Origin: a virus
IMG/VR virus record: IMGVR_UViG_3300025164_000635
Span: 31,305-95,304 of that record
DNA length: 64,000 nucleotides
Direction: 5' to 3' (one strand)
Shown: positions 2,646 through 31,490 of the stretch, one piece after another
Numbering within the stretch: position 1 is the stretch's first letter
How the letters are laid out: every line of letters begins with the position of its first letter
The notes under the pieces: generated by a model
What the model was told of the DNA's origin: nothing
Seen by the model: only the letters and a program-made list of their open reading frames with translations
The model's database searches: none
Made by a program: the position numbers and the translations under genes

Positions 2646-3992
2646 TTAGCTGGTCGGTATGGCATACGCTGCGCTGACGGTATTCTGGAAGCGCACCTCG
2701 GCGTAAGGGGGGCTCACCGGCTTCTGGACGGTGCCGAGAAGAGTGATGATCACTGGCTGTCCAGCCGTGAACGGCAGAGCACCCTGCAACGCCCAGGACA
2801 CATTCCCCTGGGTGGTGCGAACATTCAGGGCGAACTGCCGTGCGCCCGATAGGTAAGTCAGGGGACTGTAAGCCCGGAAGTCCACGTCTCCCGTGAAGGG
2901 AGAGGCCGAGAATCGCTTCCCGGTCGTCGAGTTGGTGATCAGAGCCCGATATAGATCGTAGTTGCTGATCAGGGCTGTCGCCCGGAACGTGATCTGGCGT
3001 GTGATGTTCGGGAAGTCTAGAGGACTGTACTCCCCGATGATCATGGCCTGCTCGACCGGCAGCAGAGAGTTCGTGATGGTCACCGTCAGACCCGAACACT
3101 GCAACTGCTCGCCCTCAATGATGACCTGCGACTTCGGATCGGCTGCGATTGAAAACGCATCGTCGGAGTCGTAAGCATCGGTGAGCCAGTTGATGTTCAC
3201 ACTATGGCCAGCGCCGGCGATCTCGGTTGTCAGGGCCTCGGCCACCGTGATCTTGGCCGTCGTCGCCGTGACGACGGTGAACGTGCCATTGTTACCCGCT
3301 TCCGTGAAGCCCGACGTGACGATGGAGTCGCCCGGCTCGAAGCGCTGGAAACCGGATGCCGAGTCGTTGAAGCTGTCGTCTGTGGCACTCACAGAGATCG
3401 TGGCCGCCGTGTAGCGTTTCGGGACGAACAGGTCTTCGTCTTCCGGCGAGCGTGCCATCAAGTCCATGGTGGCCGAGAGCACGCCCATCGACGGCAGGTT
3501 GAGCTCTAGGCTGCCGATACGAGCGTCCTGCATCTGCTCGCCCAGAGCATCTACGCCCGTGGCCGTCACCCCTTCCAGGAAGCGCCGCACAGACATATAC
3601 GGCGTGTAGTTGGTCTGGGCCGAGTCGTGGGTGAAGGTGTGGATGTACGAGCCGGTCTCGGCTGAGTCGGCGCCGCCGCCGTCGATGTTGAAGGCGAAGT
3701 TGTCTGTGACAGTATCCTTGCCCATGGCCGCCAGGAGTATATGACCGATGTCATCCTGGAGACGAGGCAGGAAGGCGAGTTGGCCGGCTCCCCAGACACC
3801 GGTCTTGTACATACCGCGTGGCGTGATGTCCGAGCCCGCTTCTAGGGGTAGGTTCCGGGAAGGCTGTGTGGGGCCGAACGGCGCTGCGGTAAAGGGAAAC
3901 TTTCGCCAGGCGGGTGTCGCACTCATGAGGTTGTGGTCCCTCTGAATGGCAAGACCGAACTGGGATGCTGCTGCGATGTGAATTTGTCCCAT
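2646..3992 (-). CDS. Major tail tube protein with inserted accessory beta domain
   Basis: 448 aa, beta-rich; GHILLAAMG / YIHTFT / ITNSL / RQITF pattern typical of tube proteins; synteny. Confidence 0.75.
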   Translation of the reverse strand: MGQIHIAAASQFGLAIQRDHNLMSATPAWRKFPFTAAPFGPTQPSRNLPLEAGSDITPRGMYKTGVWGAGQLAFLPRLQDDIGHILLAAMGKDTVTDNFAFNIDGGGADSAETGSYIHTFTHDSAQTNYTPYMSVRRFLEGVTATGVDALGEQMQDARIGSLELNLPSMGVLSATMDLMARSPEDEDLFVPKRYTAATISVSATDDSFNDSASGFQRFEPGDSIVTSGFTEAGNNGTFTVVTATTAKITVAEALTTEIAGAGHSVNINWLTDAYDSDDAFSIAADPKSQVIIEGEQLQCSGLTVTITNSLLPVEQAMIIGEYSPLDFPNITRQITFRATALISNYDLYRALITNSTTGKRFSASPFTGDVDFRAYSPLTYLSGARQFALNVRTTQGNVSWALQGALPFTAGQPVIITLLGTVQKPVSPPYAEVRFQNTVSAAYAIPTS

Positions 3993-4024
3993 TGGGATTC
4001 TCCTGTTGACGACTTAGGTTGCGA

Positions 4025-4594
4025 TCACGACAAGGGGATGCCGGTGGGATAAGGCTTTGGCCCAGTCGTGGTGAGCGCAGACCAGCGAAGGAAGAAGCGG
4101 GTGGTATTCGCCGTCTTCGCTCCAGAGTCGTACTCCACCACACCTGCGACCAGGAAGAGGTGTACTCTCTCCCCGTACTCATCCACCAAGTCCCGTATAT
4201 CCATATTTCTGAGAGCAAACTTAGCACGCGCCAGTGCTTCCTGGATCACGGCGTCCGCCTCAACGGGGTCCTCACGAGATCGGGTGAGGAGCCCGACCGC
4301 CTCGACGACCCCCCGGATGAACTCGGAGGTATCACCGCCGATTATGGCCGGTGGCATGTGGAGACCGAGCGTGTTGGCCCTCCGGTCTGCCAGTGTGCCG
4401 TCCGTCCAGGCTGTATCCAGGATGGGATCGAAGTTGAGCAACACGAGTGCGATCCGATCCTTTCCAGGATTTCCCTGCGTTCTGAGGTATACCCCGTCCA
4501 CCCGCGTCGTATTGTTAGCCGACAGGTCGGTCATGCAGACCTTTTTCAGGGTGTCCAGGATTCGCACATTCAGCAGGTGCTTGATGGCCGACAT
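4025..4594 (-). CDS. Putative tail terminator / tail completion protein
   Basis: 189 aa between adaptor and tail tube; synteny only. Confidence 0.5.
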   Translation of the reverse strand: MSAIKHLLNVRILDTLKKVCMTDLSANNTTRVDGVYLRTQGNPGKDRIALVLLNFDPILDTAWTDGTLADRRANTLGLHMPPAIIGGDTSEFIRGVVEAVGLLTRSREDPVEADAVIQEALARAKFALRNMDIRDLVDEYGERVHLFLVAGVVEYDSGAKTANTTRFFLRWSALTTTGPKPYPTGIPLS

Positions 4595-4597
4595 ACC

Positions 4598-5263
4598 CTA
4601 CCTCGTCTGAGGAGGATGGAGTGCGATCAGGTTCTTATACCAGTTCCACATCTCGCGGGCCTGGGCCGCCCGTGAGTTGTCCACAGGCGTCCCGGAGTCA
4701 AGCTTGATGTTGTACTCTCGATTCATGGACGAGGCGACCGCCTGCGGCTGCAGGATGAACGCCCCGGCCAGGAAGGAAAGCGGGTGCTCGGCCCACATGG
4801 GAATGTAGATCTCAGGCTGCACCACGAGAACATTCCCATCCCCGTCCAGGCGATACTCTATCGCTGGCCAGGTAGCGTAGTAGTGCAGAACCAGTTCCCG
4901 ATTGCTCGATGGCGTCTCCAGGTGTAGAACATTTCCCCACACCCAGAAGGCCAACTCCTGATCGGTCTCGCTTCGGTAACCGTCTTCTTGGAAGCGTCTC
5001 TTTGCCCATATCTTCGAGTTGGCGGGATCGTAGATCATGCCCATCTCGAAGAAGTCGACGGGTAGGTCGGCCAGCCGGCCTCCTTCCCGGATAACCAGGC
5101 TTTGCTCTCGTTCGCGGGCGGTATGGGCGCAGAAAGCATCCTGCGCCCAGTTCCAGGCCGCAATCCTCATTGGAGTGACGTGTTGCGGCGTGACATCGGT
5201 CACAGTCACGTCATCCAGGAAGTAACTGAGCTTATCGTTGATCGTGCCCCAGGTCGTGCTCAT
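4598..5263 (-). CDS. Putative head-tail adaptor
   Basis: 221 aa right after capsid; N.AQ..F / LP.DF / L.YYA pattern of phage adaptor proteins. Confidence 0.6.
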   Translation of the reverse strand: MSTTWGTINDKLSYFLDDVTVTDVTPQHVTPMRIAAWNWAQDAFCAHTAREREQSLVIREGGRLADLPVDFFEMGMIYDPANSKIWAKRRFQEDGYRSETDQELAFWVWGNVLHLETPSSNRELVLHYYATWPAIEYRLDGDGNVLVVQPEIYIPMWAEHPLSFLAGAFILQPQAVASSMNREYNIKLDSGTPVDNSRAAQAREMWNWYKNLIALHPPQTR

Positions 5264-5267
5264 GAAA

Positions 5268-6692
5268 TTACTGGATGCTCACTGCACCACGATTGGCGAA
5301 TGACCCTTCACAGAAGAGGACCTCGTACACGTCCGGGTTCTGCTGATTCATTTCGCCGCGCTCCTGCCAGGTGACGCGCTCGATCGAGGGGAAGTCGGCG
5401 TTCTCGTCCGTTGGACGATTCCAAACGATCTTCTCGCGTCCTGCCCAGACCACCATCCCACGAGCGCCGACTGCGTACACGGGGTACACATGCTGCGCCT
5501 TGGTGACGTAGCCGTACACGCCCGCGGTGACCGCCTCGTTGAACTCTTCGGTGATCGGATAGCGGAACACCAGTCGATTATTGGTTGTATCCACAGCCTG
5601 AACTTCCATGATGATCGTCTTGCCGTCCAGGAAGTTCACGCCGTTCGTGATTCCCCAATCACTGGTTCGGGACGCATGCAGCGCCACGAAGTCACCGACC
5701 GCAAAGTCACCATCTGAGAAGTCGGAACACTGGACGTAGTGGGTGACGGCTGTGCCGCCCTGACCGGTGAGCCAGATGCCGTCGACCGAGCCGGTCTCGG
5801 GATCGGGGGCGCCATCGCCCCAGTTCACCGGGCTGGTGATGTTCACCTGTTTGTCGATCTTGCCGGCACACCACAAGGACATCCCGACCCCGTAGTCCTG
5901 GATCGTGATGTTGCGGTACTGGATGACCCCACCATTGATGATGCGCTGATCGTTCAACTGCCGTAGGTCAATCATCCAGTCACGCGCCGGTGAGTTCCAT
6001 AGATCCCAGTAAACTGAAGTCGGGACCGAGATCAGGACGTTGCTGCGGAAGTCCTGGCCGGGAACCGGGTTGGCGTAATCACCGTGTTGCTTCAGTGTAT
6101 CCTTGCTGCGGATCGCCATACGCAGCGACATCTCTTCCAGGTACTGGATGTCGAACTTGTACGTGCCCGACCTGTCCAGTGTCCCGAAGTCGTTGGCCGA
6201 TGACCAGACTGCGCCGTTGCCCAGGAACTTGTACATAGCGTTGTTGAGCACGGCATCTCGGGCGATCTTCTCGTGTACCTCAACGACATTGTTGAGAAGC
6301 TGCGCGTTCATGGCCGCCCGGATGAAGGCGTCCGTGTCGTTTCCGAAACGGGTGACCAACTCGTCGGCCTTGTCCCATTGCGCCTTGCCGCCGTAGCGGA
6401 ACCGGGAACGCAGGCGCCGCTCACGGGTGTCAACGTAGATACCAGACGTGTAGCGCTGGTACCAGCCAATCGGGTTGTGATTGGCGTGCGATGGGATCAG
6501 CTCACGACCCGTGTAGAAGAAGTTGTTCAGGCCGACCCCTACGGGAACCTGGACGTAATCCGCCCAGGGTGTGAACATCACGTCGGCTTGGTGGAACCGC
6601 GTGTCCACCGATGCGTCTCGTTCATCCCACGTACCACGGTTCCAGGCCGCCATGGGGTGAATGTCGAGATATTGTGCTAGTTCGAGTGCCAC
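5268..6692 (-). CDS. Major capsid protein
   Basis: 474 aa, GGAGG RBS, follows scaffold; RYGGKAQW, P.VYWDL, G.I.Y..I.I pattern consistent with HK97 fold plus insertion. Confidence 0.75.
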   Translation of the reverse strand: MALELAQYLDIHPMAAWNRGTWDERDASVDTRFHQADVMFTPWADYVQVPVGVGLNNFFYTGRELIPSHANHNPIGWYQRYTSGIYVDTRERRLRSRFRYGGKAQWDKADELVTRFGNDTDAFIRAAMNAQLLNNVVEVHEKIARDAVLNNAMYKFLGNGAVWSSANDFGTLDRSGTYKFDIQYLEEMSLRMAIRSKDTLKQHGDYANPVPGQDFRSNVLISVPTSVYWDLWNSPARDWMIDLRQLNDQRIINGGVIQYRNITIQDYGVGMSLWCAGKIDKQVNITSPVNWGDGAPDPETGSVDGIWLTGQGGTAVTHYVQCSDFSDGDFAVGDFVALHASRTSDWGITNGVNFLDGKTIIMEVQAVDTTNNRLVFRYPITEEFNEAVTAGVYGYVTKAQHVYPVYAVGARGMVVWAGREKIVWNRPTDENADFPSIERVTWQERGEMNQQNPDVYEVLFCEGSFANRGAVSIQ

Positions 6693-15599: not shown

Positions 15600-17455
15600 C
15601 GCCGATCCCTCCGGGTCTGTGTTCGTGCTCCTCGATAGGAGCTTCTCGGCAGCCTCACCATCTCTTCGTCATCACTGGCCGGCATGGGTTTCAGATCTTC
15701 GTTGATCCTGAACTTATCGACCACCCTACTCCAAAGAGTCCCTTCGTACCTGACCGCCAAGCAGTATACAAACAAAGAGGCAATCACGTCATCGGACAAC
15801 TTATCGTGCCCCGGCCCCTTTTCCCGGTAAACGCCGCCTTGATACCAAAGAGCGGTCAGCTTCGGCCAGGCAAAATGACTATCTTGCGCCAAGAGCGTAA
15901 ATAGAGACCGAGCCCAGGCTTTGTTGTTACCGGCAAACGTGACCGGCACAGTCTGATAGCTAGCGAAAACACCACTGTCCTCGAACCCGGTCAGTCCCAG
16001 ATTGGTCGCGTCGTAATAGCCCATGGCTGCGTAATCATCCATGCACTGCTTGAACGCGCTCAGCCACGGATCGTAAGTCCCATCCCCATCCAGCATCCCA
16101 AAATAGACTAACGGGATTGGTTTCACCATGAAGGTCGTCAAATCAAGCGCCAATACGGTCGGCACATTCTGGTCACTCAGCTGGGCCGGATACGACTTTC
16201 CCGGATCGCCCACCACAATGTAGCTATGTCGCGCAATTGGCGGCACTCGATACCGGATGACGCCCATTTCCCCTCGACTCTCAGACGGGATCCGCTCGGC
16301 CAGTAAGTCCTTATCCATCTCTTCATCGTGGCACCGATTGAAAAGCACTTCTGGCAATAGCCGATTCAGGCTCGAGGAGTTCGTATCCCCACCCAACCAA
16401 CGCCTCTGCTCGGCCTCAGATAGCAAGGCCCCATGAAATGCCTTCTGCCGATCGGTGATGTAGACGTTCGCGTCTCGGTGAATCCCCTCCACGTAGCGTG
16501 CCTTCACCAAAGGATCGTTCTTCTCGGCCAGCGTCCTGATGCGTCCTTTGAGCACTTCCAACTCAGGATTCAACATCCCGTCTTCGGGTGGGTTCGTCAG
16601 CATGGTCAGTTTCGACCACATATCCTCACCATTCGCCCGTTGTCCGCGCGAACGGGTCATGAGTGTTCCCAAAGCGGCCACAATACCCATGAGGTACTGC
16701 ACCTCGTCCACATTCAGCCAATCCACATTCTTCCCGGTAATGTTCTGCGCTGTGCCATCTCGCCCAATCGTTTGACACACAAACCGGCTCTCATATTGCG
16801 GCCCAAAGGGACTCCGAATCACCACGGTCGGGTGTGGCTTTGAGACAAACAACTCGCCCCCACGAGTCATCTCTACAAATTTCGTGAAGGGCGTATCGGT
16901 GCACCACTTTGTCAACTCTTCCACCATCAATACGGCCTGATTCTCGGTGGGCGCCACGTTCAGGAACCGGAAGCCCGGATACAACGCACAGCACCCCAGG
17001 CCCGCCACGGCTACCGCACTCGTCTTGCTCGTCCCGGTCCCCGTGATGGCCAGCACGACCGCCACACTCGGATCGATCAACCCATTCTGTATCACCCACG
17101 GCAAAAAGAGATACCCATGCGGATACAAGAAGTCTGGCTCAGCCAGCTCTGTCCAGCGCGTCTCAATACGCATGAGGCCAAACCCCTCGACCTCCAGTTT
17201 CATCTCCTGCTCCGGCCGGCCCGCCTGCACCCACATCTCGTGCAACTGACCGTACTCAAAAAGAGACCGGTAATGGCCAGTCTCACCCCCTTCCGCCCGC
17301 CAGCGAGTCCCCCCGCCTGGCAAGCGCATGTAGTAGTTCGTCAGCACATTCAGGTCACCGTCGCGTGCCTCCTTCAATACCCGCATGTCTGACGGCTCCG
17401 CCAGCGACTCAAATCGCTTCATCCACCTCGATAACGCCCTCTCGTCCGCCCTCAT
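15596..17455 (-). CDS. terL: Terminase large subunit
   Basis: Walker A-like GTGTSKT, APTENQA, Walker B WLNVDEVQ, LTNP, nuclease VGDPG and DDVIASL. Start moved to ATGA overlap at 17455. Confidence 0.85.
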   Translation of the reverse strand: MRADERALSRWMKRFESLAEPSDMRVLKEARDGDLNVLTNYYMRLPGGGTRWRAEGGETGHYRSLFEYGQLHEMWVQAGRPEQEMKLEVEGFGLMRIETRWTELAEPDFLYPHGYLFLPWVIQNGLIDPSVAVVLAITGTGTSKTSAVAVAGLGCCALYPGFRFLNVAPTENQAVLMVEELTKWCTDTPFTKFVEMTRGGELFVSKPHPTVVIRSPFGPQYESRFVCQTIGRDGTAQNITGKNVDWLNVDEVQYLMGIVAALGTLMTRSRGQRANGEDMWSKLTMLTNPPEDGMLNPELEVLKGRIRTLAEKNDPLVKARYVEGIHRDANVYITDRQKAFHGALLSEAEQRRWLGGDTNSSSLNRLLPEVLFNRCHDEEMDKDLLAERIPSESRGEMGVIRYRVPPIARHSYIVVGDPGKSYPAQLSDQNVPTVLALDLTTFMVKPIPLVYFGMLDGDGTYDPWLSAFKQCMDDYAAMGYYDATNLGLTGFEDSGVFASYQTVPVTFAGNNKAWARSLFTLLAQDSHFAWPKLTALWYQGGVYREKGPGHDKLSDDVIASLFVYCLAVRYEGTLWSRVVDKFRINEDLKPMPASDDEEMVRLPRSSYRGARTQTRRDRR

Positions 17456-17640
17456 CCATCCCCCTTCCCTACAGGTGGAGTCTTGCCCCACCATTCCGTG
17501 CGTCTGGAGACCGCCTCATCAAAGGCGTCCAGACAGCTAATTAGAAACTGCGCCAGGATGAAGTCCGGCGTGTCCGACCGATTCTCCATGCTGTTCTCGT
17601 TCAGCAACACCGTCAGCTTGTCCCGAAATCCGTCACTCAT
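17452..17640 (-). CDS. Conserved small phage protein (N..S.EN.SDTPDFILA..L..CL)
   Basis: 62 aa, GAGGT RBS. Confidence 0.6.
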   Translation of the reverse strand: MSDGFRDKLTVLLNENSMENRSDTPDFILAQFLISCLDAFDEAVSRRTEWWGKTPPVGKGDG

Positions 17641-17906
17641 ACCTCGAGAGCCTCCGTTATACTCTCAACCTGCCTTACCAACTCCTCCAGGCGCGTGACC
17701 CGTTCCTGAAACTGGTTTGCCAACGCCACATACACCCCATTCGACTGCTCCCTGAGCGTCGGCGCCTCCATCATCGGCCGCATGACGCCCGACAGCCGCC
17801 CCTCCAGTCTCCCCAGACCCTTCTGGAGTTGCTCCAGGCTCACATCCAGCTTAACCAGTACCTCCTGCATGTGTGTCTGTTTAGCCATCTGGTCATGCTG
17901 CTGCAT
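17637..17906 (-). CDS. Small coiled-coil protein
   Basis: 89 aa, AGGAGG RBS. Confidence 0.55.
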   Translation of the reverse strand: MQQHDQMAKQTHMQEVLVKLDVSLEQLQKGLGRLEGRLSGVMRPMMEAPTLREQSNGVYVALANQFQERVTRLEELVRQVESITEALEV

Positions 17907-18162
17907 CTTGCCCCTCCTTGAGATATTCTCGACTTGCCTGAATGTACGCAGGCGGCTGTGTCCAGCCCGACAACAGTGCTAACCACACCCGCCCAAATAC
18001 TAGAGCCGATAGCCTTTCTCGCAAACTCAGCCGCCAGCAGGATACGCACTGCTCCCCATCTGACCATACTGCCAGCGGCACCACTCCCCCTACCCTCTCC
18101 GAGTAACTGTGACTGCTTGGAAACAAGACCTTGTTCGCTAACCCAAAAGCCACTGGCCTCAT
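17893..18162 (-). CDS. Conserved hypothetical phage protein (DGEQCVSCW...RERL...GRVWL...TQPP)
   Basis: Start reassigned to ATG 18162 (ATGA overlap). Confidence 0.6.
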   Translation of the reverse strand: MRPVAFGLANKVLFPSSHSYSERVGGVVPLAVWSDGEQCVSCWRLSLRERLSALVFGRVWLALLSGWTQPPAYIQASREYLKEGQDAAA

Positions 18163-18338
18163 CCCCCACCCCACCCCACCTGCTCCATCAGGGCTACCAA
18201 CGCTTCCGTCACCCGTATCCACTCGTCCCACTGCGCCACCAGACGCCTTGGCGCGTTCGCTCTCATCATCGACGCCCTCTCTATCAGCGCCCTCAACTCC
18301 CCCACCCCCAACGGCCTCAAACTCTCTTCGGTCACCAT
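18159..18338 (-). CDS. Hypothetical protein (59 aa), first gene of the left arm
   Basis: MVTEESLRPLGVGELRALIERA...; GAGGAGGTG RBS; not in ORF track. Confidence 0.5.
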   Translation of the reverse strand: MVTEESLRPLGVGELRALIERASMMRANAPRRLVAQWDEWIRVTEALVALMEQVGWGGG

Positions 18339-18507
18339 CCCTCACACCTCCTCTTACAGAGTCCCCCTATTCTACCACTCCCCACCCTTCTCGGCCTCAC
18401 CCACGCATACAACTTGGCCGCCGGAAAAGGGAGAAATATATAAGAACAGATGGCCTTTTAGTGAAGTATAGGGCTTTCTGTCCACATCCAGGAAAGGAGA
18501 AAGTGTC

Positions 18508-18615
18508 ATGTCACAGGTTGGTTCGTTCATTCTGTTGGTCGTGGCCGCCGTGTTCATTCTGGCTGGTGGTGGCGCAGGCGTCATCATCGGGCAACTGTTC
18601 ACGATGGGCTTCTAA
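18508..18615 (+). CDS. Small membrane peptide (35 aa)
   Basis: AAAGGAG RBS; MSQVGSFILLVVAAVFILAGGGAGVIIGQLFTMGF. Confidence 0.6.
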   Translation: MSQVGSFILLVVAAVFILAGGGAGVIIGQLFTMGF

Positions 18616-18715
18616 CTGAATAGCAGAGGCAGAGGGGCAACCGAAAGGTTGTGTCCCTCGCCCTCTGGGATTCAGCCGAAAGGCTATACCAAGAATCCTG
18701 GAAAGGAGAACAGCC

Positions 18716-18961
18716 ATGTTGCAGATCAACCATGTCGAGATCAGGACAATCGAGGCCGCGAAACTGATGGACTTCGTGGGCAAGGCGCAACCGTCTGCTT
18801 GGGGTATCGGTCGGTATGCCCTGCAGGCAGGGCAGCCCACCATCCAGGTTGAGCAGCGGGTGTGCCATGCCGCCGCTCTTGAACTGCGCCAGTTGGCCGC
18901 AGAGAAGGACATCGCCAACCCGGCGCTGTTCGCTATTGCGGCCTATCTCGGCAATCTGTAA
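18716..18961 (+). CDS. Hypothetical early protein
   Basis: AAAGGAGAACAGCC-ATG leader, identical to that of the RNAP gene. Confidence 0.65.
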   Translation: MLQINHVEIRTIEAAKLMDFVGKAQPSAWGIGRYALQAGQPTIQVEQRVCHAAALELRQLAAEKDIANPALFAIAAYLGNL

Positions 18962-18974
18962 AACAACTGAATAT

Positions 18975-19036
18975 CGCAGAGAGGGGCTAGGCCATAGGCT
19001 TAGCTCTAATGCGGCATACCGGTCTCAAGCCCGGTA
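18975..19036 (+). ncRNA. Twister ribozyme, circularly permuted (P1 closed by a loop)
   Basis: CGCA-GAGAG-[GGGCTAGGCC ata GGCTTAGCTC]-TAA-TGCG-GC-ATA-CCG-GTCTCAAGCC-CGG. P1, P2, P4, T1 (CTC/GAG) and T2 (GC/GC) are all satisfied; predicted cut U19007^A19008. Confidence 0.85.
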
Positions 19037-19065
19037 AACCCATGTCGCATAAAGGAGAAAGAGTC

Positions 19066-19257
19066 ATGCGTACAGTTATCCAGGACCGGGTAGCTTCAGA
19101 AGCTACTCGGAGAGCATACGAACGTATGATGGAGAGCAACCCAAGACCCAGCTACCAGCCTCAGTCTGAGGCCGAAGCCTGGAGACAGGCGTGGATCTCA
19201 GGCAAGGTCAGCCTAGGGGATGTCCCGGCTCGCTATCGCTCCCTCGTTGCTCGCTAA
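19066..19257 (+). CDS. Hypothetical early protein
   Basis: AAAGGAG RBS, start 19066. Confidence 0.6.
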   Translation: MRTVIQDRVASEATRRAYERMMESNPRPSYQPQSEAEAWRQAWISGKVSLGDVPARYRSLVAR

Positions 19258-19263
19258 CAATCG

Positions 19264-19365
19264 AATATCTGCCTTCTTCCAGGAAGGCAGAGCAGGCTCA
19301 TTCTCTCGGAGGAGGATGGGCCTGCTCTGCTTTCTGGGACTAGAGCCCAGAGCAGAGAAAAGGAG
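19264..19365 (+). ncRNA. Repeated structured leader element, copy A
   Basis: Three hairpins ending in TCTGGG-ACTAGAG-CCCAGA, then GCAGAGAAAAGGAG. Confidence 0.7.
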
Positions 19366-19372
19366 AATCACC

Positions 19373-19567
19373 ATGACGTACCCGAAAGGCTACACCAACG
19401 ACTACGCTACCATCTGGGAGCAACGCATGAGCAAGGCCATCGGCCTGCACCTACACTGGCTGACTGAGGCATGCTACCAGGCCGCTCTTTACAGCGACCG
19501 CCTCACCATCCAGGCTCAGGTCAAGCTGGGCAAGCTCTACATGGCTGCCAGCAAGGGCGGCAAGTAG
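19373..19567 (+). CDS. Hypothetical early protein
   Basis: AAGGAG RBS, start 19373. Confidence 0.6.
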   Translation: MTYPKGYTNDYATIWEQRMSKAIGLHLHWLTEACYQAALYSDRLTIQAQVKLGKLYMAASKGGK

Positions 19568-19572
19568 TCGTC

Positions 19573-19672
19573 AATCTACTTCTGTCTTCCCCTCCGGGAA
19601 GGCAGAGGCTTGGGTATCACGGTATCCAAGCCTCTGCCTTTCGGGACTAGAGCCCGAAGCAGAGAAAAGGAG
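19573..19672 (+). ncRNA. Repeated structured leader element, copy B
   Basis: Same three-hairpin layout; TTCGGG-ACTAGAG-CCCGAA (stem sequence differs but pairing kept). Confidence 0.7.
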
Positions 19673-19678
19673 AAACCC

Positions 19679-19948
19679 ATGTCTCACAAGATCATCTTCG
19701 TGCTGGTGCTGGTCGGGCTGATGCTGGCCTTCACGGCCTGTGATGCCTCGAAAGAGGCAGGCTGGACGACCTCCTGTATCCGGGAGTACAAGGCCGCCAA
19801 CGATGGGGCTGATCCGGATGCGGACACACTCAAGGCGTGCGTTGAGGCCAAGAGAGATGCTGCTGAGTCTCTCAACAAGACACTCAATCAGGGCAAGCAG
19901 CAGGCCGAAGCCCTGGTTGCTACACCCGTCCCTGACCCCAATAAGTAG
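19679..19948 (+). CDS. Small lipoprotein
   Basis: MSHKIIFVLVLVGLMLAFTA-C lipobox. Confidence 0.65.
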   Translation: MSHKIIFVLVLVGLMLAFTACDASKEAGWTTSCIREYKAANDGADPDADTLKACVEAKRDAAESLNKTLNQGKQQAEALVATPVPDPNK

Positions 19949-19965
19949 CAAGCTATAGACAACCA

Positions 19966-20072
19966 AATATCGCTTCACCCCTGCTCCCTCATGGGAGCAG
20001 ACCAGAGCCACTCTCCTGCGAGGGCGGCTCTGGTCTGCTTCTGGGACTAGAGCCCAGGCAAACAGAAAGGAG
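19966..20072 (+). ncRNA. Repeated structured leader element, copy C
   Basis: Same layout; CTGGG-ACTAGAG-CCCAG, then AAAGGAG. Confidence 0.7.
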
Positions 20073-20080
20073 TAGTAGCC

Positions 20081-20575
20081 ATGTTACACAATCCGTTGTT
20101 CTGGTTCTGTGTTGCAGCTCTGCTTGTTGCTATCCATGAGCTGATCGTCCGCAATCGCAACCCCTTCTACGAGCTGGACTTGCGGGAGTATTACGAGCCG
20201 AGCTCCCAGGAAGGGGATGAGTGCCCCATCTGCGGTGTCATGGGCGGGCACGATGCCGAGATATGCACGGGTGATGAGTATGCCGGCGTGTGCCGTGAGG
20301 ACTTCTATGTCCAATTCGGCAACACCCCAGAAGTTCGGGAGCTGTATCACATCTGGGTCTCTGAGGCTAATGTGGAGTTCCGCTGGATGGTCATGGATAT
20401 GTGCGGCATGTACGGTGCCTCCGAGACCTTGGGCCGCCTCCGGGAAGCCATCAACGAGGAGCGGCCTCTCGACTTGCCATCCAGCAAAGAGATGCACCGC
20501 CGCATCCTCCGGGCTTGCCCCGATCCCGACCTCGCCCGCGGTATGGGTGAGGAGACCCTCTACAGAGTGCGATAG
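20081..20575 (+). CDS. Membrane-anchored protein with CPIC...H...C zinc motif
   Basis: N-terminal TM segment; CPICGVMGGHDAEIC. Confidence 0.6.
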   Translation: MLHNPLFWFCVAALLVAIHELIVRNRNPFYELDLREYYEPSSQEGDECPICGVMGGHDAEICTGDEYAGVCREDFYVQFGNTPEVRELYHIWVSEANVEFRWMVMDMCGMYGASETLGRLREAINEERPLDLPSSKEMHRRILRACPDPDLARGMGEETLYRVR

Positions 20576-20583
20576 GAGGAACA

Positions 20584-21003
20584 GTGGATAAGTATGTACG
20601 GGTCCGTCTGACGAGCGCTAGCCTCTTGGCGCAGTCAGATCCCTTCCCAGTGTTGTTGTGGTACGACGCCAGGAAGCGGGCCGTCCACCTGAAGGTCATC
20701 TCCAGCGCGGGTGGGCGGTATGACGTGCACCTTCGGTTCCAGGTGCACGAGGGCAAGGCTTACCTCATGGATCGGATGTGCTTCTGTGAGGACTTCGAGT
20801 CCTCGATGAAGCACTTCGACATGCTCCAGGAGCTCGGGATGCCGGTTGAGGGGAGTGCCTTGCCTCTCTATCGGGGCCTGCCCATCTGCAAGCACATCCT
20901 GCTCGGCGGTCTGAAGGTGATCGCCGAGAACTGGGTGGCCCTCTTCCTGGATGGGCAGCCGCAGGCTAAAGCCTTCCAGGAAGATGAAGTCCTGCCGTTC
21001 TAG
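20584..21003 (+). CDS. SWIM-type zinc finger protein
   Basis: CFCEDF...ICKHIL (CxC...CxH); GGAGG RBS. Confidence 0.65.
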   Translation: MDKYVRVRLTSASLLAQSDPFPVLLWYDARKRAVHLKVISSAGGRYDVHLRFQVHEGKAYLMDRMCFCEDFESSMKHFDMLQELGMPVEGSALPLYRGLPICKHILLGGLKVIAENWVALFLDGQPQAKAFQEDEVLPF

Positions 21004-21172
21004 CACGAGCAAAACAACACACGTGCCTCTTGTGCACTCCAATGACGCCACTGGTGTCTGGACATGCAAGAGAGGCATGTGCCATATCATGCCGAAAGGC
21101 AGCGCTTGGCCGCGTTACAGCCGATTGAACGACCTGATAGGCAGGAATCAACCTACATAAAGGAGAACAGCC

Positions 21173-23575
21173 ATGTCGTTCACGTCATTTCGCTCTACCC
21201 GTAAGGTGGTTGTGGTGGACCGCTTCGGGCGACCCACCGGAGAGGAAAGGATTCTCTCTAACAGCCCGATCGACGCCCTGTTCCCTGACGAGAAGATCGT
21301 CATGGTGAACTGGAAGTACGAGGGCGCGAAGGCGCCCACCGCTGAAGAGTTGCGCCGGCCGATCCGCCACGGCGGCAACGAGTACCGTGGTGACTGGGCC
21401 TGGGGCAGCAGCGTCAAGCGCGGATACACTGTGGGCCTGACCCGTGACCTGCTGGTGGACACGGGATTGCTGAACTGCTGTGAGGACGCCCACCGATTCG
21501 GTCGGGCGTTCCTTGCCAACGGCCTGTATGGGGCCGGGAAGGGTGAGCTGCACATCAAGTTCGTGCCCGAAGGGACTCAGACCCTGGCCGGCCCGGTGGC
21601 GGACGGCTTCGGGTATGTGAGACGCTCGGTGGCCGAGAAGATGAATGCCGGACACGACAAGATCAAGTTCGGCACCGCGCGCGACTCGTCGCACTGGTGG
21701 CAGCGCATTCCCTGGACATCCGAGATCCAGGAAGAGCTGGAGCCGCTTCTGCGTGACAACCTGGTGGAGGCTGGTGACCCCGGGTTGTGGATGTTGAGGC
21801 AGTTAGGCGACCGCGATCAGGGTCGCCGCCACCTGGTCGAAGCCGAGCCGTTGATGGCTGAGCACCCGTATGTGGCGAACATGCTCATGAGGGTGTCCTC
21901 AGACATCCTGGCCCGGGCGGCCACGACGGTCCCCCTGAATCACGCGGTGAAGGTTACTGTGCCCGCGAACGTCCCCAACATCGCTGTGGACGGGAAAACA
22001 CTGAGCACGCGCTACCCGATCGATGCCAAGAACTCCATCCGGGCGAACAACAACACGCTCAACACCGTGGAAGCCGAGATGGAGCGGATTGCCGAGATGG
22101 AGCGGATTGCCCAGATGGAGGTCATTCAGTATGGCATGACCTCCATGGGTGACCATCCCTTCTCGGCTAAAGGCTGCGCCGGGATCGTTGACGATGATCT
22201 CCTCGATGCCGACTTCGTGTTGTGCACGAAGGACATCAAGATGGGTGACAAGAAGTTGGTGGACATCAAGGCGGAGATCGTGGTCTCGGTGACCCAGTGG
22301 TTTGCCCAGGGCGAGGCGGTCGGTGTGAATACGAAGTTCTGGGCCGACCAGGGCGGTGATTGCGACGGCGATCTGGCGTTGATCGCCGATTGCAGTGAGT
22401 TGCCCCGCCTGTGGGAGGCGGTTAGCGGGTTTGGGCTCCAGCCCACGCCCAAGCTCATCAAGACTCACACGAAGCTGGAGGACGAGGACATCCGGGGTGA
22501 GTTGGCTGAGAAATCCATGCTGAATGTGGTCGGCATGGCAGTCAACCTCATGGCTGCGACGTTTGTCACGGCCAACCGGGAAGAGATGGCCCACCGCCTG
22601 GGCTATGCGAGTGAGGCTGCCCTGGATAACGCCCTGAATTACTGGGTGAAAGCAGGCACGGATCTCTTCAAGGTGTCTGTCGACACCAAGCAGCTCATGC
22701 AAGATCTCTCTCGGTTCCAGAGCAAGCTGGTCAATGTGCTCGGTACGCTGCCGCCGTGGGTGAGCTGGCCCAACGACTGGGCCTTCACGCACGGCGTCCC
22801 GTCCTTCTGGAACGAGGACGAGATGGGTCACCTGAAGAGCGACGATCCTGTTCGGAAGAATGCCGTTCCTACCAATTCCTGGTACGACGGGACCATCGTC
22901 CAGATCATGAGGCTGACCCTGCTCGCCCTCAGCGCGATGCTGAGCCATACCCTGGCTGTGCGGCCGCTGCATGACTTCCAGAGATGGGCCCTGGTTGTGC
23001 CGGACAGTGTTCTGGGGCCCGCGATCGGTCTCCAGAAGATGTTCGTAGCCGAGTCCCAGCGCGTCAACTGGGAGTGGCCCCAGGATGTCGTCCGCTTCAG
23101 CCAGTGGTGGGCCGAGAAGGTCGCCACCTGGAAGAACGAGATGGGCCTGGATGACACCCTAGCCTGCGCTGCTATCTGGCGCGCGGCCCATGACATGCGG
23201 AGCAAATACGCCGGGGCGTCGTCTGTGTTCATGGCCTTCCCGGAAGAAGTACTGGATATTCTCCGGGATAAGCCCGGCCTCTCCAAGTTGGTGTCTGGTG
23301 TCATCCTCGGCCTGCCCGAAGTGACCGAGGAGACGGTCATCCAGGGCACCGTTCGGGAGTTCAAACGCAAGGACTCACAGTCCGGCCGGACCGTCATCCG
23401 CAAGTGCTTGGTGGACGGTAACTCGGGCCTACCCCATATGCCCGACATCAACTACCCGGGCGCGATTGCCGTCTTTGCTTCGGATCACCCGTCGCCCGAG
23501 AATGGGCTGAAGGTGACCGTCAAGGTCACCCGGCGCACCAAGAAGTCCTGGTTCGCTGATTGCATCTGCCAGTAG
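21173..23575 (+). CDS. Single-subunit double-psi-beta-barrel RNA polymerase (YonO / RdRP-like)
   Basis: 800 aa; ADGFGYV (aa 144), RYP (280), SAKG (333), catalytic GGDCDGD (396-400). Confidence 0.75.
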   Translation: MSFTSFRSTRKVVVVDRFGRPTGEERILSNSPIDALFPDEKIVMVNWKYEGAKAPTAEELRRPIRHGGNEYRGDWAWGSSVKRGYTVGLTRDLLVDTGLLNCCEDAHRFGRAFLANGLYGAGKGELHIKFVPEGTQTLAGPVADGFGYVRRSVAEKMNAGHDKIKFGTARDSSHWWQRIPWTSEIQEELEPLLRDNLVEAGDPGLWMLRQLGDRDQGRRHLVEAEPLMAEHPYVANMLMRVSSDILARAATTVPLNHAVKVTVPANVPNIAVDGKTLSTRYPIDAKNSIRANNNTLNTVEAEMERIAEMERIAQMEVIQYGMTSMGDHPFSAKGCAGIVDDDLLDADFVLCTKDIKMGDKKLVDIKAEIVVSVTQWFAQGEAVGVNTKFWADQGGDCDGDLALIADCSELPRLWEAVSGFGLQPTPKLIKTHTKLEDEDIRGELAEKSMLNVVGMAVNLMAATFVTANREEMAHRLGYASEAALDNALNYWVKAGTDLFKVSVDTKQLMQDLSRFQSKLVNVLGTLPPWVSWPNDWAFTHGVPSFWNEDEMGHLKSDDPVRKNAVPTNSWYDGTIVQIMRLTLLALSAMLSHTLAVRPLHDFQRWALVVPDSVLGPAIGLQKMFVAESQRVNWEWPQDVVRFSQWWAEKVATWKNEMGLDDTLACAAIWRAAHDMRSKYAGASSVFMAFPEEVLDILRDKPGLSKLVSGVILGLPEVTEETVIQGTVREFKRKDSQSGRTVIRKCLVDGNSGLPHMPDINYPGAIAVFASDHPSPENGLKVTVKVTRRTKKSWFADCICQ

Positions 23576-23578
23576 CAT

Positions 23579-23790
23579 AGGTTCCGAGGCCGATCTTCGG
23601 ATCGGCTCTCGGCTTCTGGGTAGGTGAAAGCCCATCCAGAAGCCGGGAAGGAACTTACCTTCTCTAGCGTGGAGTCTCACCACACTCTCCCTCCCACGGG
23701 GCACGGCAGCCTACTTCCGGGCTACCGCCGTCTTCCCCCTGGGGCTAACGCCGCACTAAAGCTCCGAGAGGAAGCAAACTCCTATAGGAA
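23579..23790 (+). ncRNA. Structured intergenic RNA candidate
   Basis: TAGGTTCC/GGAACTTA closes a UUCG hairpin and a long GAAA-capped hairpin; further nested stems follow. Confidence 0.45.
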
Positions 23791-23802
23791 AGGTGGTGTA
23801 GC

Positions 23803-30981: not shown

Positions 30982-31490
30982 TAAGGTTCAAGCTCATCAT
31001 CTACACCGATGGCTGTTGCTTCCCGGTGCCTAACTCAGCCGGGACAGGTGGCTATGCCGCCGTCCTACGCTATGGAGAGAGCACCAAAGAGATTGTCGGC
31101 GGTTTCCTGATGACCAATGCGCCTCGGATGGAACTCTACGGGGCACTCACGGCCCTGGAAGCACTCAAGAGGCCATGTCATGTCATCATCAGGAGTGACA
31201 GCAAGTACCTGGTCAATATGTTCGGGCAAGGGTGGGCCAGGAAGTGGAAGGCACAAGGATGGTACCTTGATCCCAGGGCCACCGTCCCACAGTTGGCCAA
31301 GAACGTTGACCTTGTGAGCCGGCTCCTGAACATGATTGATTCACACTTCTCGGTCAGGTTTGAGTGGGTGAGGGGCCACAACGGGGACCCCGATAACGAG
31401 CGGTGTGACAAGCTGGCCCAGCAAGGAGCCGAAGAGGCTTACGAGCCGGACCCAGGCTACCAACCCAGACAGGAGGAGAGTGATGGGTAG
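30978..31490 (+). CDS. rnhA: Ribonuclease HI
   Basis: IYTDG, GGYAAVL, RMEL, SDSKY, KNVDL, WVRGHNGDPDNERCDKLA. Confidence 0.92.
   Translation: MIRFKLIIYTDGCCFPVPNSAGTGGYAAVLRYGESTKEIVGGFLMTNAPRMELYGALTALEALKRPCHVIIRSDSKYLVNMFGQGWARKWKAQGWYLDPRATVPQLAKNVDLVSRLLNMIDSHFSVRFEWVRGHNGDPDNERCDKLAQQGAEEAYEPDPGYQPRQEESDG

Follow-up and report, generated by a model that had tools for sequence, protein, structure and literature searches.

The DNA analysed here, called the window in the following, comprises 64,000 nucleotides and covers positions 31305 to 95304 of an IMG/VR virus record with a length of 95,304 bp, which CheckV rates as complete. It belongs to an uncultured 95-kb phage. Genes on the minus strand, including those for the portal protein and the large terminase, extend up to position 17494 of the window. 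From 18508 onwards there is a run of small genes on the plus strand, which encode proteins of 35, 81, 63, 64, 89, 164 and 139 amino acids, each of them with an AAAGGAG-type ribosome binding site (RBS), and this run closes with the gene for an 800-aa protein. From the layout alone it is plausible that these are early genes. The present study is concerned with the spacer between the genes for the 81-aa protein (18716-18961, plus strand, stop codon at 18959-61) and the 63-aa protein (19066-19257, plus strand). The ATG of the latter occupies 19066-68 and its Shine-Dalgarno sequence GGAG lies at 19054-57 within AAAGGAG. Neither of the two proteins matches a Pfam or PHROG family or has relatives in IMG/VR, and a blastn search against a phage collection gave no match. 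A simple scan of the region 17400-23800 detected no sigma-70-type promoter and no convincing terminator. The first gene of the operon (18508-18615) encodes a very hydrophobic 35-aa peptide, MSQVGSFILLVVAAVFILAGGGAGVIIGQLFTMGF, that is probably a small membrane protein.

An Rfam cmscan search identified a type-P5 twister ribozyme at 18975-19034 (plus strand), on the coding strand between the co-directional genes for the 81-aa and 63-aa proteins. It starts 13 nt behind the stop codon of the upstream gene and ends 31 nt ahead of the ATG of the downstream gene. The match to Twister-P5 (RF02684) scores 50.0 bits, compared to a gathering score of 37.6, and spans the full model (positions 1-58 of 58), with an E-value of 2e-7 for the window against all families and of 7e-11 for the genome against RF02684 alone. 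It is the sole Rfam hit at threshold in the whole 95-kb genome, which hence possesses one twister copy. In the cmscan alignment every upper-case consensus position of the model is identical (GCAGAG.G, UAAUGC.GCA and CGGUC.CAAGCCCG). The preliminary description had already proposed an intact permuted twister in the spacer between two genes and had named a scan with Infernal twister models as a check; the scan confirms this assignment, and all the elements that had been read by eye were recovered at their positions.

The strand order is the permuted one, P2'-L1-P1-UAA-P2-P4, with the termini at the position of P5. The 5' strand of P2, CGCA (18975-18978), pairs with UGCG (19010-13) to form a stem of 4 bp. 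It is followed by L1, GAGAG (18979-18983), of which the bases GAG at 18981-83 pair with CUC at 19024-26 as pseudoknot T1. P1 is a hairpin of 10 bp (18984-93 with 18997-19006), including two G-U pairs and closed by the loop AUA. The cleavage triplet UAA, conserved in the model alignment, occupies 19007-09 and is followed by the 3' strand of P2 together with the GC of pseudoknot T2 (19010-19015). P4 comprises 4 bp between CCGG at 19019-22 and CCGG at 19031-34 with L4 being UCUCAAGC (whole element 19019-19034); Rfam draws it as a 3-bp stem with the loop GUCUCAAGCC. Both strands of T2, GC at 19014-15 and GC at 19029-30, are present, and since these positions are invariant, T2 is assigned on sequence evidence only. 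A closing P5 stem was not seen by eye, as in most viral examples. The only match of this kind between the 5' flank and the 3' tail, 4 bp of ATAT with ATGT, is not claimed as a stem. Compared to the Rfam family (RF02684, clan CL00120), the element has the same strand order, the same conserved nucleotides and both pseudoknots, and its core shows no differences.

Twister ribozymes cleave themselves and leave a 2',3'-cyclic phosphate and a 5'-OH end. The predicted scissile bond is U19007^A19008, which is the position given by the model and which we take to be the site of cleavage from the known chemistry of the class.

A further argument for a genuine ribozyme comes from pseudoknot T1. For 77 dereplicated twisters from viral contigs, among the matches listed, the variable base of L1 (GCAGAG-N-G) was compared with the variable base of L4 (GGUC-N-CAAG). 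The two bases form a Watson-Crick pair in 76 of these comparators, and all four pair types occur: U:A in 60/77, G:C in 10/77, A:U in 3/77 and C:G in 3/77, with a single U:G (1/77) as the remaining case. The twister in the window possesses the pair A18982:U19025 and thus one of the rarer types. Relative to the more frequent U:A and G:C pairs this is a compensatory exchange, which argues for an RNA that has been selected to fold as a twister and not for a chance look-alike. We have hardly any doubt that the element is a genuine twister, and it is likely that it cleaves in the transcripts of the phage.

Neither the kind of element nor its placement is new. The 2019 review PMC6765202 credits Roth et al. 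2014 with the description of the twister class. The same review reports twisters and hammerheads near phage genes, names the processing of polycistronic transcripts as a suggested role and regards the purpose of bacterial and phage twisters as not yet defined. A search of IMG/VR with one narrow pattern, TAATGCNGC-N2-6-CCGGTCNCAAGCCCGG, revealed at least 118 contigs with similarly placed twisters, that is, after a stop codon and shortly before the next start. Among the matches listed, dereplication left 57 type-P5 and 21 type-P1 twisters, nearly all of which directly follow a stop triplet, with a median of 26 nt separating P4 from a start codon that has a Shine-Dalgarno sequence. A second pattern retrieved 33 type-P5 copies from bacterial MAGs and genomes of several phyla. 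The window therefore contains a real, intact type-P5 twister in the ordinary position of phage twisters, the intergenic spot after a stop codon and before an RBS, for which the same kind of message processing has been proposed. It differs from other phage-operon twisters in that there is only one copy instead of an array of 4-20, and in that the other four spacers of the operon hold structured leaders without a ribozyme. An example of an array is the 5.4-kb contig L013 (IMGVR_UViG_3300012948_000209), where five type-P5 twisters lie within 2.7 kb (2723-5405), one ahead of each small gene. Most of these are accompanied by a CGCAU box, and in some cases an additional small hairpin precedes the RBS region that they share, GAGGAGACATCTCA.

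What sets the twister in the window apart from its class, next to the rarer A:U pair in T1, is a stretch further downstream that is complementary to the P2/T2 strand over an unusual length of 8-9 bp. The strand AUGCGGCAU at 19009-19017, which includes the 3' strand of P2, can alternatively pair with AUGUCGCAU at 19042-19050, a stretch that contains a second CGCA (both on the plus strand). Such a competing helix just before the RBS had been pointed out in the preliminary description and stands up to closer examination. It comprises 9 bp with one G-U pair, ends one base ahead of AAAGGAG and outdoes 299 of 300 shuffles. Its duplex energy amounts to -12.4 kcal/mol, compared to -5.4 kcal/mol for shuffled tails (z -4.4, reached by 0/200 shuffles), and its longest contiguous run is 8 bp, compared to 4.1 in shuffles (p 0.003).

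Nested folding of the whole leader places the alternative helix instead of P2 both in the minimum-energy and in the centroid fold, and for the uncut RNA it gives -33.6 kcal/mol for the alternative and -26.0 kcal/mol for the secondary structure of the ribozyme. This preference for the alternative helix in the uncut RNA means that the helix could hinder cleavage instead of following it. If so, it would compete with P2 and T2, only a fraction of the transcripts would be cut, and the helix would govern how much of the message stays polycistronic and how much is processed; cleavage could in this way even be tied to transcription speed, temperature or ribosome traffic. Such a limiting role would fit the advantage of 7.6 kcal/mol of the alternative fold, and also the short distance of 8-16 nt at which the competing strand follows P4 in transcription. 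Rough duplex terms for T1 (-4.8 kcal/mol) and T2 (-4.1 kcal/mol), together approximately -9 kcal/mol, roughly close the energy gap and make the two folds about equal. On the other hand, the strands of the ribozyme are all made before the competitor and twisters are fast, as is known for the class. Once the ribozyme has folded, nearly all of the 5' strand of the alternative helix is occupied, so that a toehold of only about 2 nt is left. No ligand-binding or sensing element is evident, and the CGCA box fits a refolding after cleavage equally well. Since the two folds are close in energy, a helix that throttles cleavage still has to be considered, but we regard it as quite unlikely.

For the products of cleavage, the predictions are as follows. 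The 3' product (19008-19068) would start with a hairpin at its 5' end (-18.2 kcal/mol, z -3.1) and keep the Shine-Dalgarno sequence unpaired, and the 5' product would finish with a hairpin of 11 bp (-16.9 kcal/mol).

A general duplex-energy test, in which the 5' end of the 3' product was compared with the tail of 49 viral type-P5 twisters, gave a mean z of only -0.53, which was no better than a control with the coding region. The helix is thus not a universal feature, and the question was narrowed to a test of one specific 4-mer, CGCA. It has the sequence of the upstream strand of P2 and is perfectly complementary to the other strand, UGCG. The choice of this 4-mer followed from the helix in the preliminary description, and its occurrence was scored in the spacer between P4 and the start codon. 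CGCA is present in 27 of 57 viral type-P5 tails (among the matches listed), compared to a shuffle mean of 6.0 and a maximum of 14 in 1000 shuffles. In the same 57 tails, other 4-mers of the same composition occur 0-13 times, and CGCA itself was found 6 times in the downstream coding stretch. When the last 30 nt of viral type-P5 tails (among the matches listed) are considered, 25 of 53 (47%) contain CGCA. Among 921 SD-ATG leaders without a twister, taken from these contigs and from the strands that carry the twisters, the share is only 8.4%, which corresponds to an odds ratio of 9.8. The twisters from bacterial genomes show a weaker effect in the same direction (9/33 compared to 5.1 expected, p 0.04). 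The pooled and cluster-weighted count, 14.4/34, exceeds the expectation of 5.7 +/- 2.0 and is reached by 0/2000 shuffles. The comparator twisters are mutually related, so that the p-values overstate the independence of the data. In the tails, CGCA is the third commonest 4-mer behind GGAG and GAGG. It follows from the specific 4-mer test that a subset of the type-P5 twisters has a downstream P2 complement.

This box is usually located 0-12 nt ahead of the Shine-Dalgarno sequence. It occurs in 34 of 66 tails of at least 22 nt and in only 2 of 24 tails below 22 nt. For 29 of the 36 twisters that possess a box, UGCG is paired to it in the predicted minimum-energy fold of the 3' product. Among the comparators, there is no variation in the 5' strand of the helix. 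P2 itself is CGCA/UGCG in 55 of 57 type-P5 twisters and UGCA/UGCA in 17 of 21 type-P1 twisters (collected twisters L008-L155, among the matches listed), and a type-P5 twister with a UGCA P2, which was sought with regard to covariation of the box, was not present in IMG/VR. The literature surveyed yielded no description of a CGCA box before the RBS. The enrichment of CGCA favours the view that the 3' product would refold and form a hairpin at its 5' end. The earlier suggestion of such a stem thus finds indirect support in the predicted hairpin and in the recurrence of the P2-strand complement far above chance.

It is also possible, that the twister is real and the alternative helix has no function, either as a chance complement or as a leftover, for instance the remnant of a permuted or tandem ancestor with CGCAGAG after P4. 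In type-P1 twisters, CGCAGAG or UGCAGAG is indeed found exactly downstream of P4, and many of the tails examined here read CGCAG(A)(G). The weak result of the general duplex test and the existence of short-spacer twisters without the box point in the same direction. However, the box in the window reads CGCAU, which lengthens the helix to 8-9 bp and does not mimic GAGNG, and the enrichment over other leaders is tenfold. A remnant would also decay unless it is selected. There are also tails that do not show, by eye, the T1 pairing to be expected of a remnant (L017, L133 and L134). For the same reason we rejected the idea that tails reading CGCAGAGG are L1 mimics which re-form T1 with L4, as the variable T1 pair is not kept in these three cases. 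A helix without any function appears unlikely to us.

We therefore prefer the reading that a functional type-P5 twister cleaves itself in the plus-strand message of the small phage genes and that the product then refolds, to which we assign a probability of about 60%. In detail, P2, P1, P4 and the two pseudoknots would form while the RNA is being synthesized. As all strands of the ribozyme are transcribed before the competitor, the twister would fold and cut first, between U19007 and A19008. The upstream RNA with the gene for the 81-aa protein would then end in the P1 hairpin of 10-11 bp with a 2',3'-cyclic phosphate, and the downstream RNA, carrying the gene for the 63-aa protein and the rest, would begin at A19008 with a 5'-OH. 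After the cut the pieces would be joined only by P2 (4 bp) and T1 (3 bp), so that the freed AUGCGGCAU might re-pair with AUGUCGCAU. This strand swap would release the 5' piece, and the new 5' end would be locked in a hairpin, made up of the alternative helix and P4, with only a few bases left between it and the Shine-Dalgarno sequence. The net result would be an intercistronic cut with both products capped by a hairpin. It is in this sense that we infer a self-processing of the transcript by the phage; likewise, cleavage in vivo, the folding order and any effect on stability or translation are what we infer from the arrangement described. That the refolding of the 3' product is a function under selection seems to us slightly short of an even bet.

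A cut of this kind would resemble the processing of the early operon of phage T7, where RNase III cuts between cistrons and the upstream message is left with a 3'-terminal hairpin. In the proposed mechanism, the cut is similarly intercistronic and leaves an upstream 3' hairpin. However, it would be a self-cut with 2',3'-cyclic phosphate and 5'-OH ends, whereas RNase III generates 3'-OH and 5'-phosphate ends. The arrangement also recalls the synthetic insulator RiboJ, reportedly introduced by Lou et al. in 2012, in which a self-cleaving ribozyme and then a hairpin are said to be placed upstream of the RBS. The layout of ribozyme, hairpin at the new 5' end and RBS is the same, as is the defined 5' end independent of the upstream sequence. 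The difference is that RiboJ is based on the sTRSV hammerhead, while the window contains a natural twister and its hairpin would arise from a strand swap that reuses strands of the ribozyme. If the strand swap is real, it would represent a natural counterpart of such engineered insulators and would explain both the product release of type-P5 twisters and their fixed short distance to the RBS. If the box does nothing, the element is one more phage twister. In any case, the locus offers a clean single-copy test case with one ribozyme and one long competing helix, in an operon whose neighbouring spacers appear to solve the same problem without a ribozyme.

A different role for the twister would be the trimming of a 5' leader instead of the separation of cistrons. 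In this case a phage RNA polymerase would use CAACTGAATATC (18964-75), directly adjacent to P2, as its promoter, and the ribozyme would remove a triphosphate leader of approximately 33 nt and leave a 5'-OH mRNA. The motif, CAAYYRAATATC, recurs after the stop codons of successive genes (18964-75, 19258-69 and 19960-71), with variants at 18614 and 19571, and it is also found in leaders of two related loci upstream of the RNAP-like gene (L169:2265-2303 and L171:5524-35). Together with the lack of a sigma-70-type promoter in the scanned region and the presence of an RNAP-like gene downstream (see below), this makes the motif a candidate for a promoter or a protein site. On the other hand, the count of three matches in the window is also attained in 7 of 100 shuffles, a transcription start inside the last bases of the motif would truncate P2, and most viral twisters abut a stop codon without such a motif. 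Leader trimming is thus a very unlikely explanation for the presence of the twister.

The preferred reading of an intercistronic self-cut followed by refolding can also be viewed in the context of the remaining spacers of the operon. No twister was detected in the other four, and leaders B (19258-19372), C (19568-19678) and D (19949-20080) have no Rfam hit at E-values up to 1. These three share a triple-hairpin layout, in which a short hairpin is followed by a near-perfect hairpin of 19-24 bp and by an invariant GGGACUAGAGCCC hairpin ahead of AAAGGAG and ATG. Their fold z-scores range from -4.5 to -5.4, and the sequences of the stems differ while the pairing is kept. Helices of 19-24 bp are typical of RNase III substrates. 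In leaders B and C, GCAGAG occurs before the long hairpin and again after the last hairpin, and since both copies are complementary to CUCUGC, mutually exclusive pairings are possible. The order GCAGAG...CUCUGC...GCAGAG would permit a strand swap in the same way as CGCA/UGCG/CGCA does in the twister slot, which speaks for the preferred reading. The pattern suggests that the ribozyme and the hairpin leaders are interchangeable processing modules.

Taken together with the CGCA statistics, a broader but tentative proposal can be formulated, which we regard as possible without favouring it. Phage type-P5 twisters might carry an accessory CGCA box, a second P2 5' strand, that captures the P2 3' strand after the cut, drives out the 5' fragment and encloses the 5'-OH end in a hairpin directly in front of the Shine-Dalgarno sequence. 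The same strand-swap logic might apply to those leaders of the operon that lack a ribozyme. In that case, ribozymes and hairpins of the RNase III type could replace one another as modules that yield messages of single genes with hairpins as caps.

Two other interpretations of the leaders B, C and D were discarded. They are not hidden twisters, as they give no Rfam hit, lack the UAA internal loop and have a different L4. An H-type pseudoknot between their ACUAGAG loop and the upstream CUCUG is not claimed, because no loop would be left to cross the helix. A search of IMG/VR for the loop motif yielded six chance hits and no relatives. Leader A (18616-18715) is of another kind. It starts with AACUGAAUAGCAGAGGCAGAGGGG, which resembles the first 25 nt of the twister slot, and forms a single long hairpin closed by CUGAAU/AUUCAG (-43.5 kcal/mol, z -4.8) in which the core of UAA and L4 is missing. 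This leader could represent a decayed module or an unrelated one.

The 800-aa protein at the end of the gene run (21173-23575) gave access to relatives of the phage. It has no Pfam, PHROG or PDB sequence match and, as a single query, retrieved nothing from IMG/VR. An alignment of RNAP-like proteins, however, led to 21 loci, one from IMG/VR (L158) and 20 from metagenomes (L159-L178), at 32-48% identity, except for L165, a 100%-identical fragment that is taken as the same phage. As far as these contigs reach upstream of the RNAP-like gene, none of the loci has an Rfam hit, with the reservation that they are distant and many of the contigs short. The twister is hence not a conserved part of the gene cluster, and approximately 20 distant relatives without it indicate that it is dispensable for this gene layout. 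It was probably gained sporadically.

Nine homologues of the 800-aa protein, with 33-41% identity, share an invariant GGDFDGD-type motif, which is the signature of two-barrel RNA polymerases. On the basis of this motif, the protein is a candidate for a single-subunit two-barrel (YonO-like) RNA polymerase. Its gene is preceded by a structured leader of 169 nt (21004-21172) with a fold z-score of -3.6, which comprises an irregular hairpin of approximately 24 pairs (21020-21081) and a GAAA-capped hairpin.
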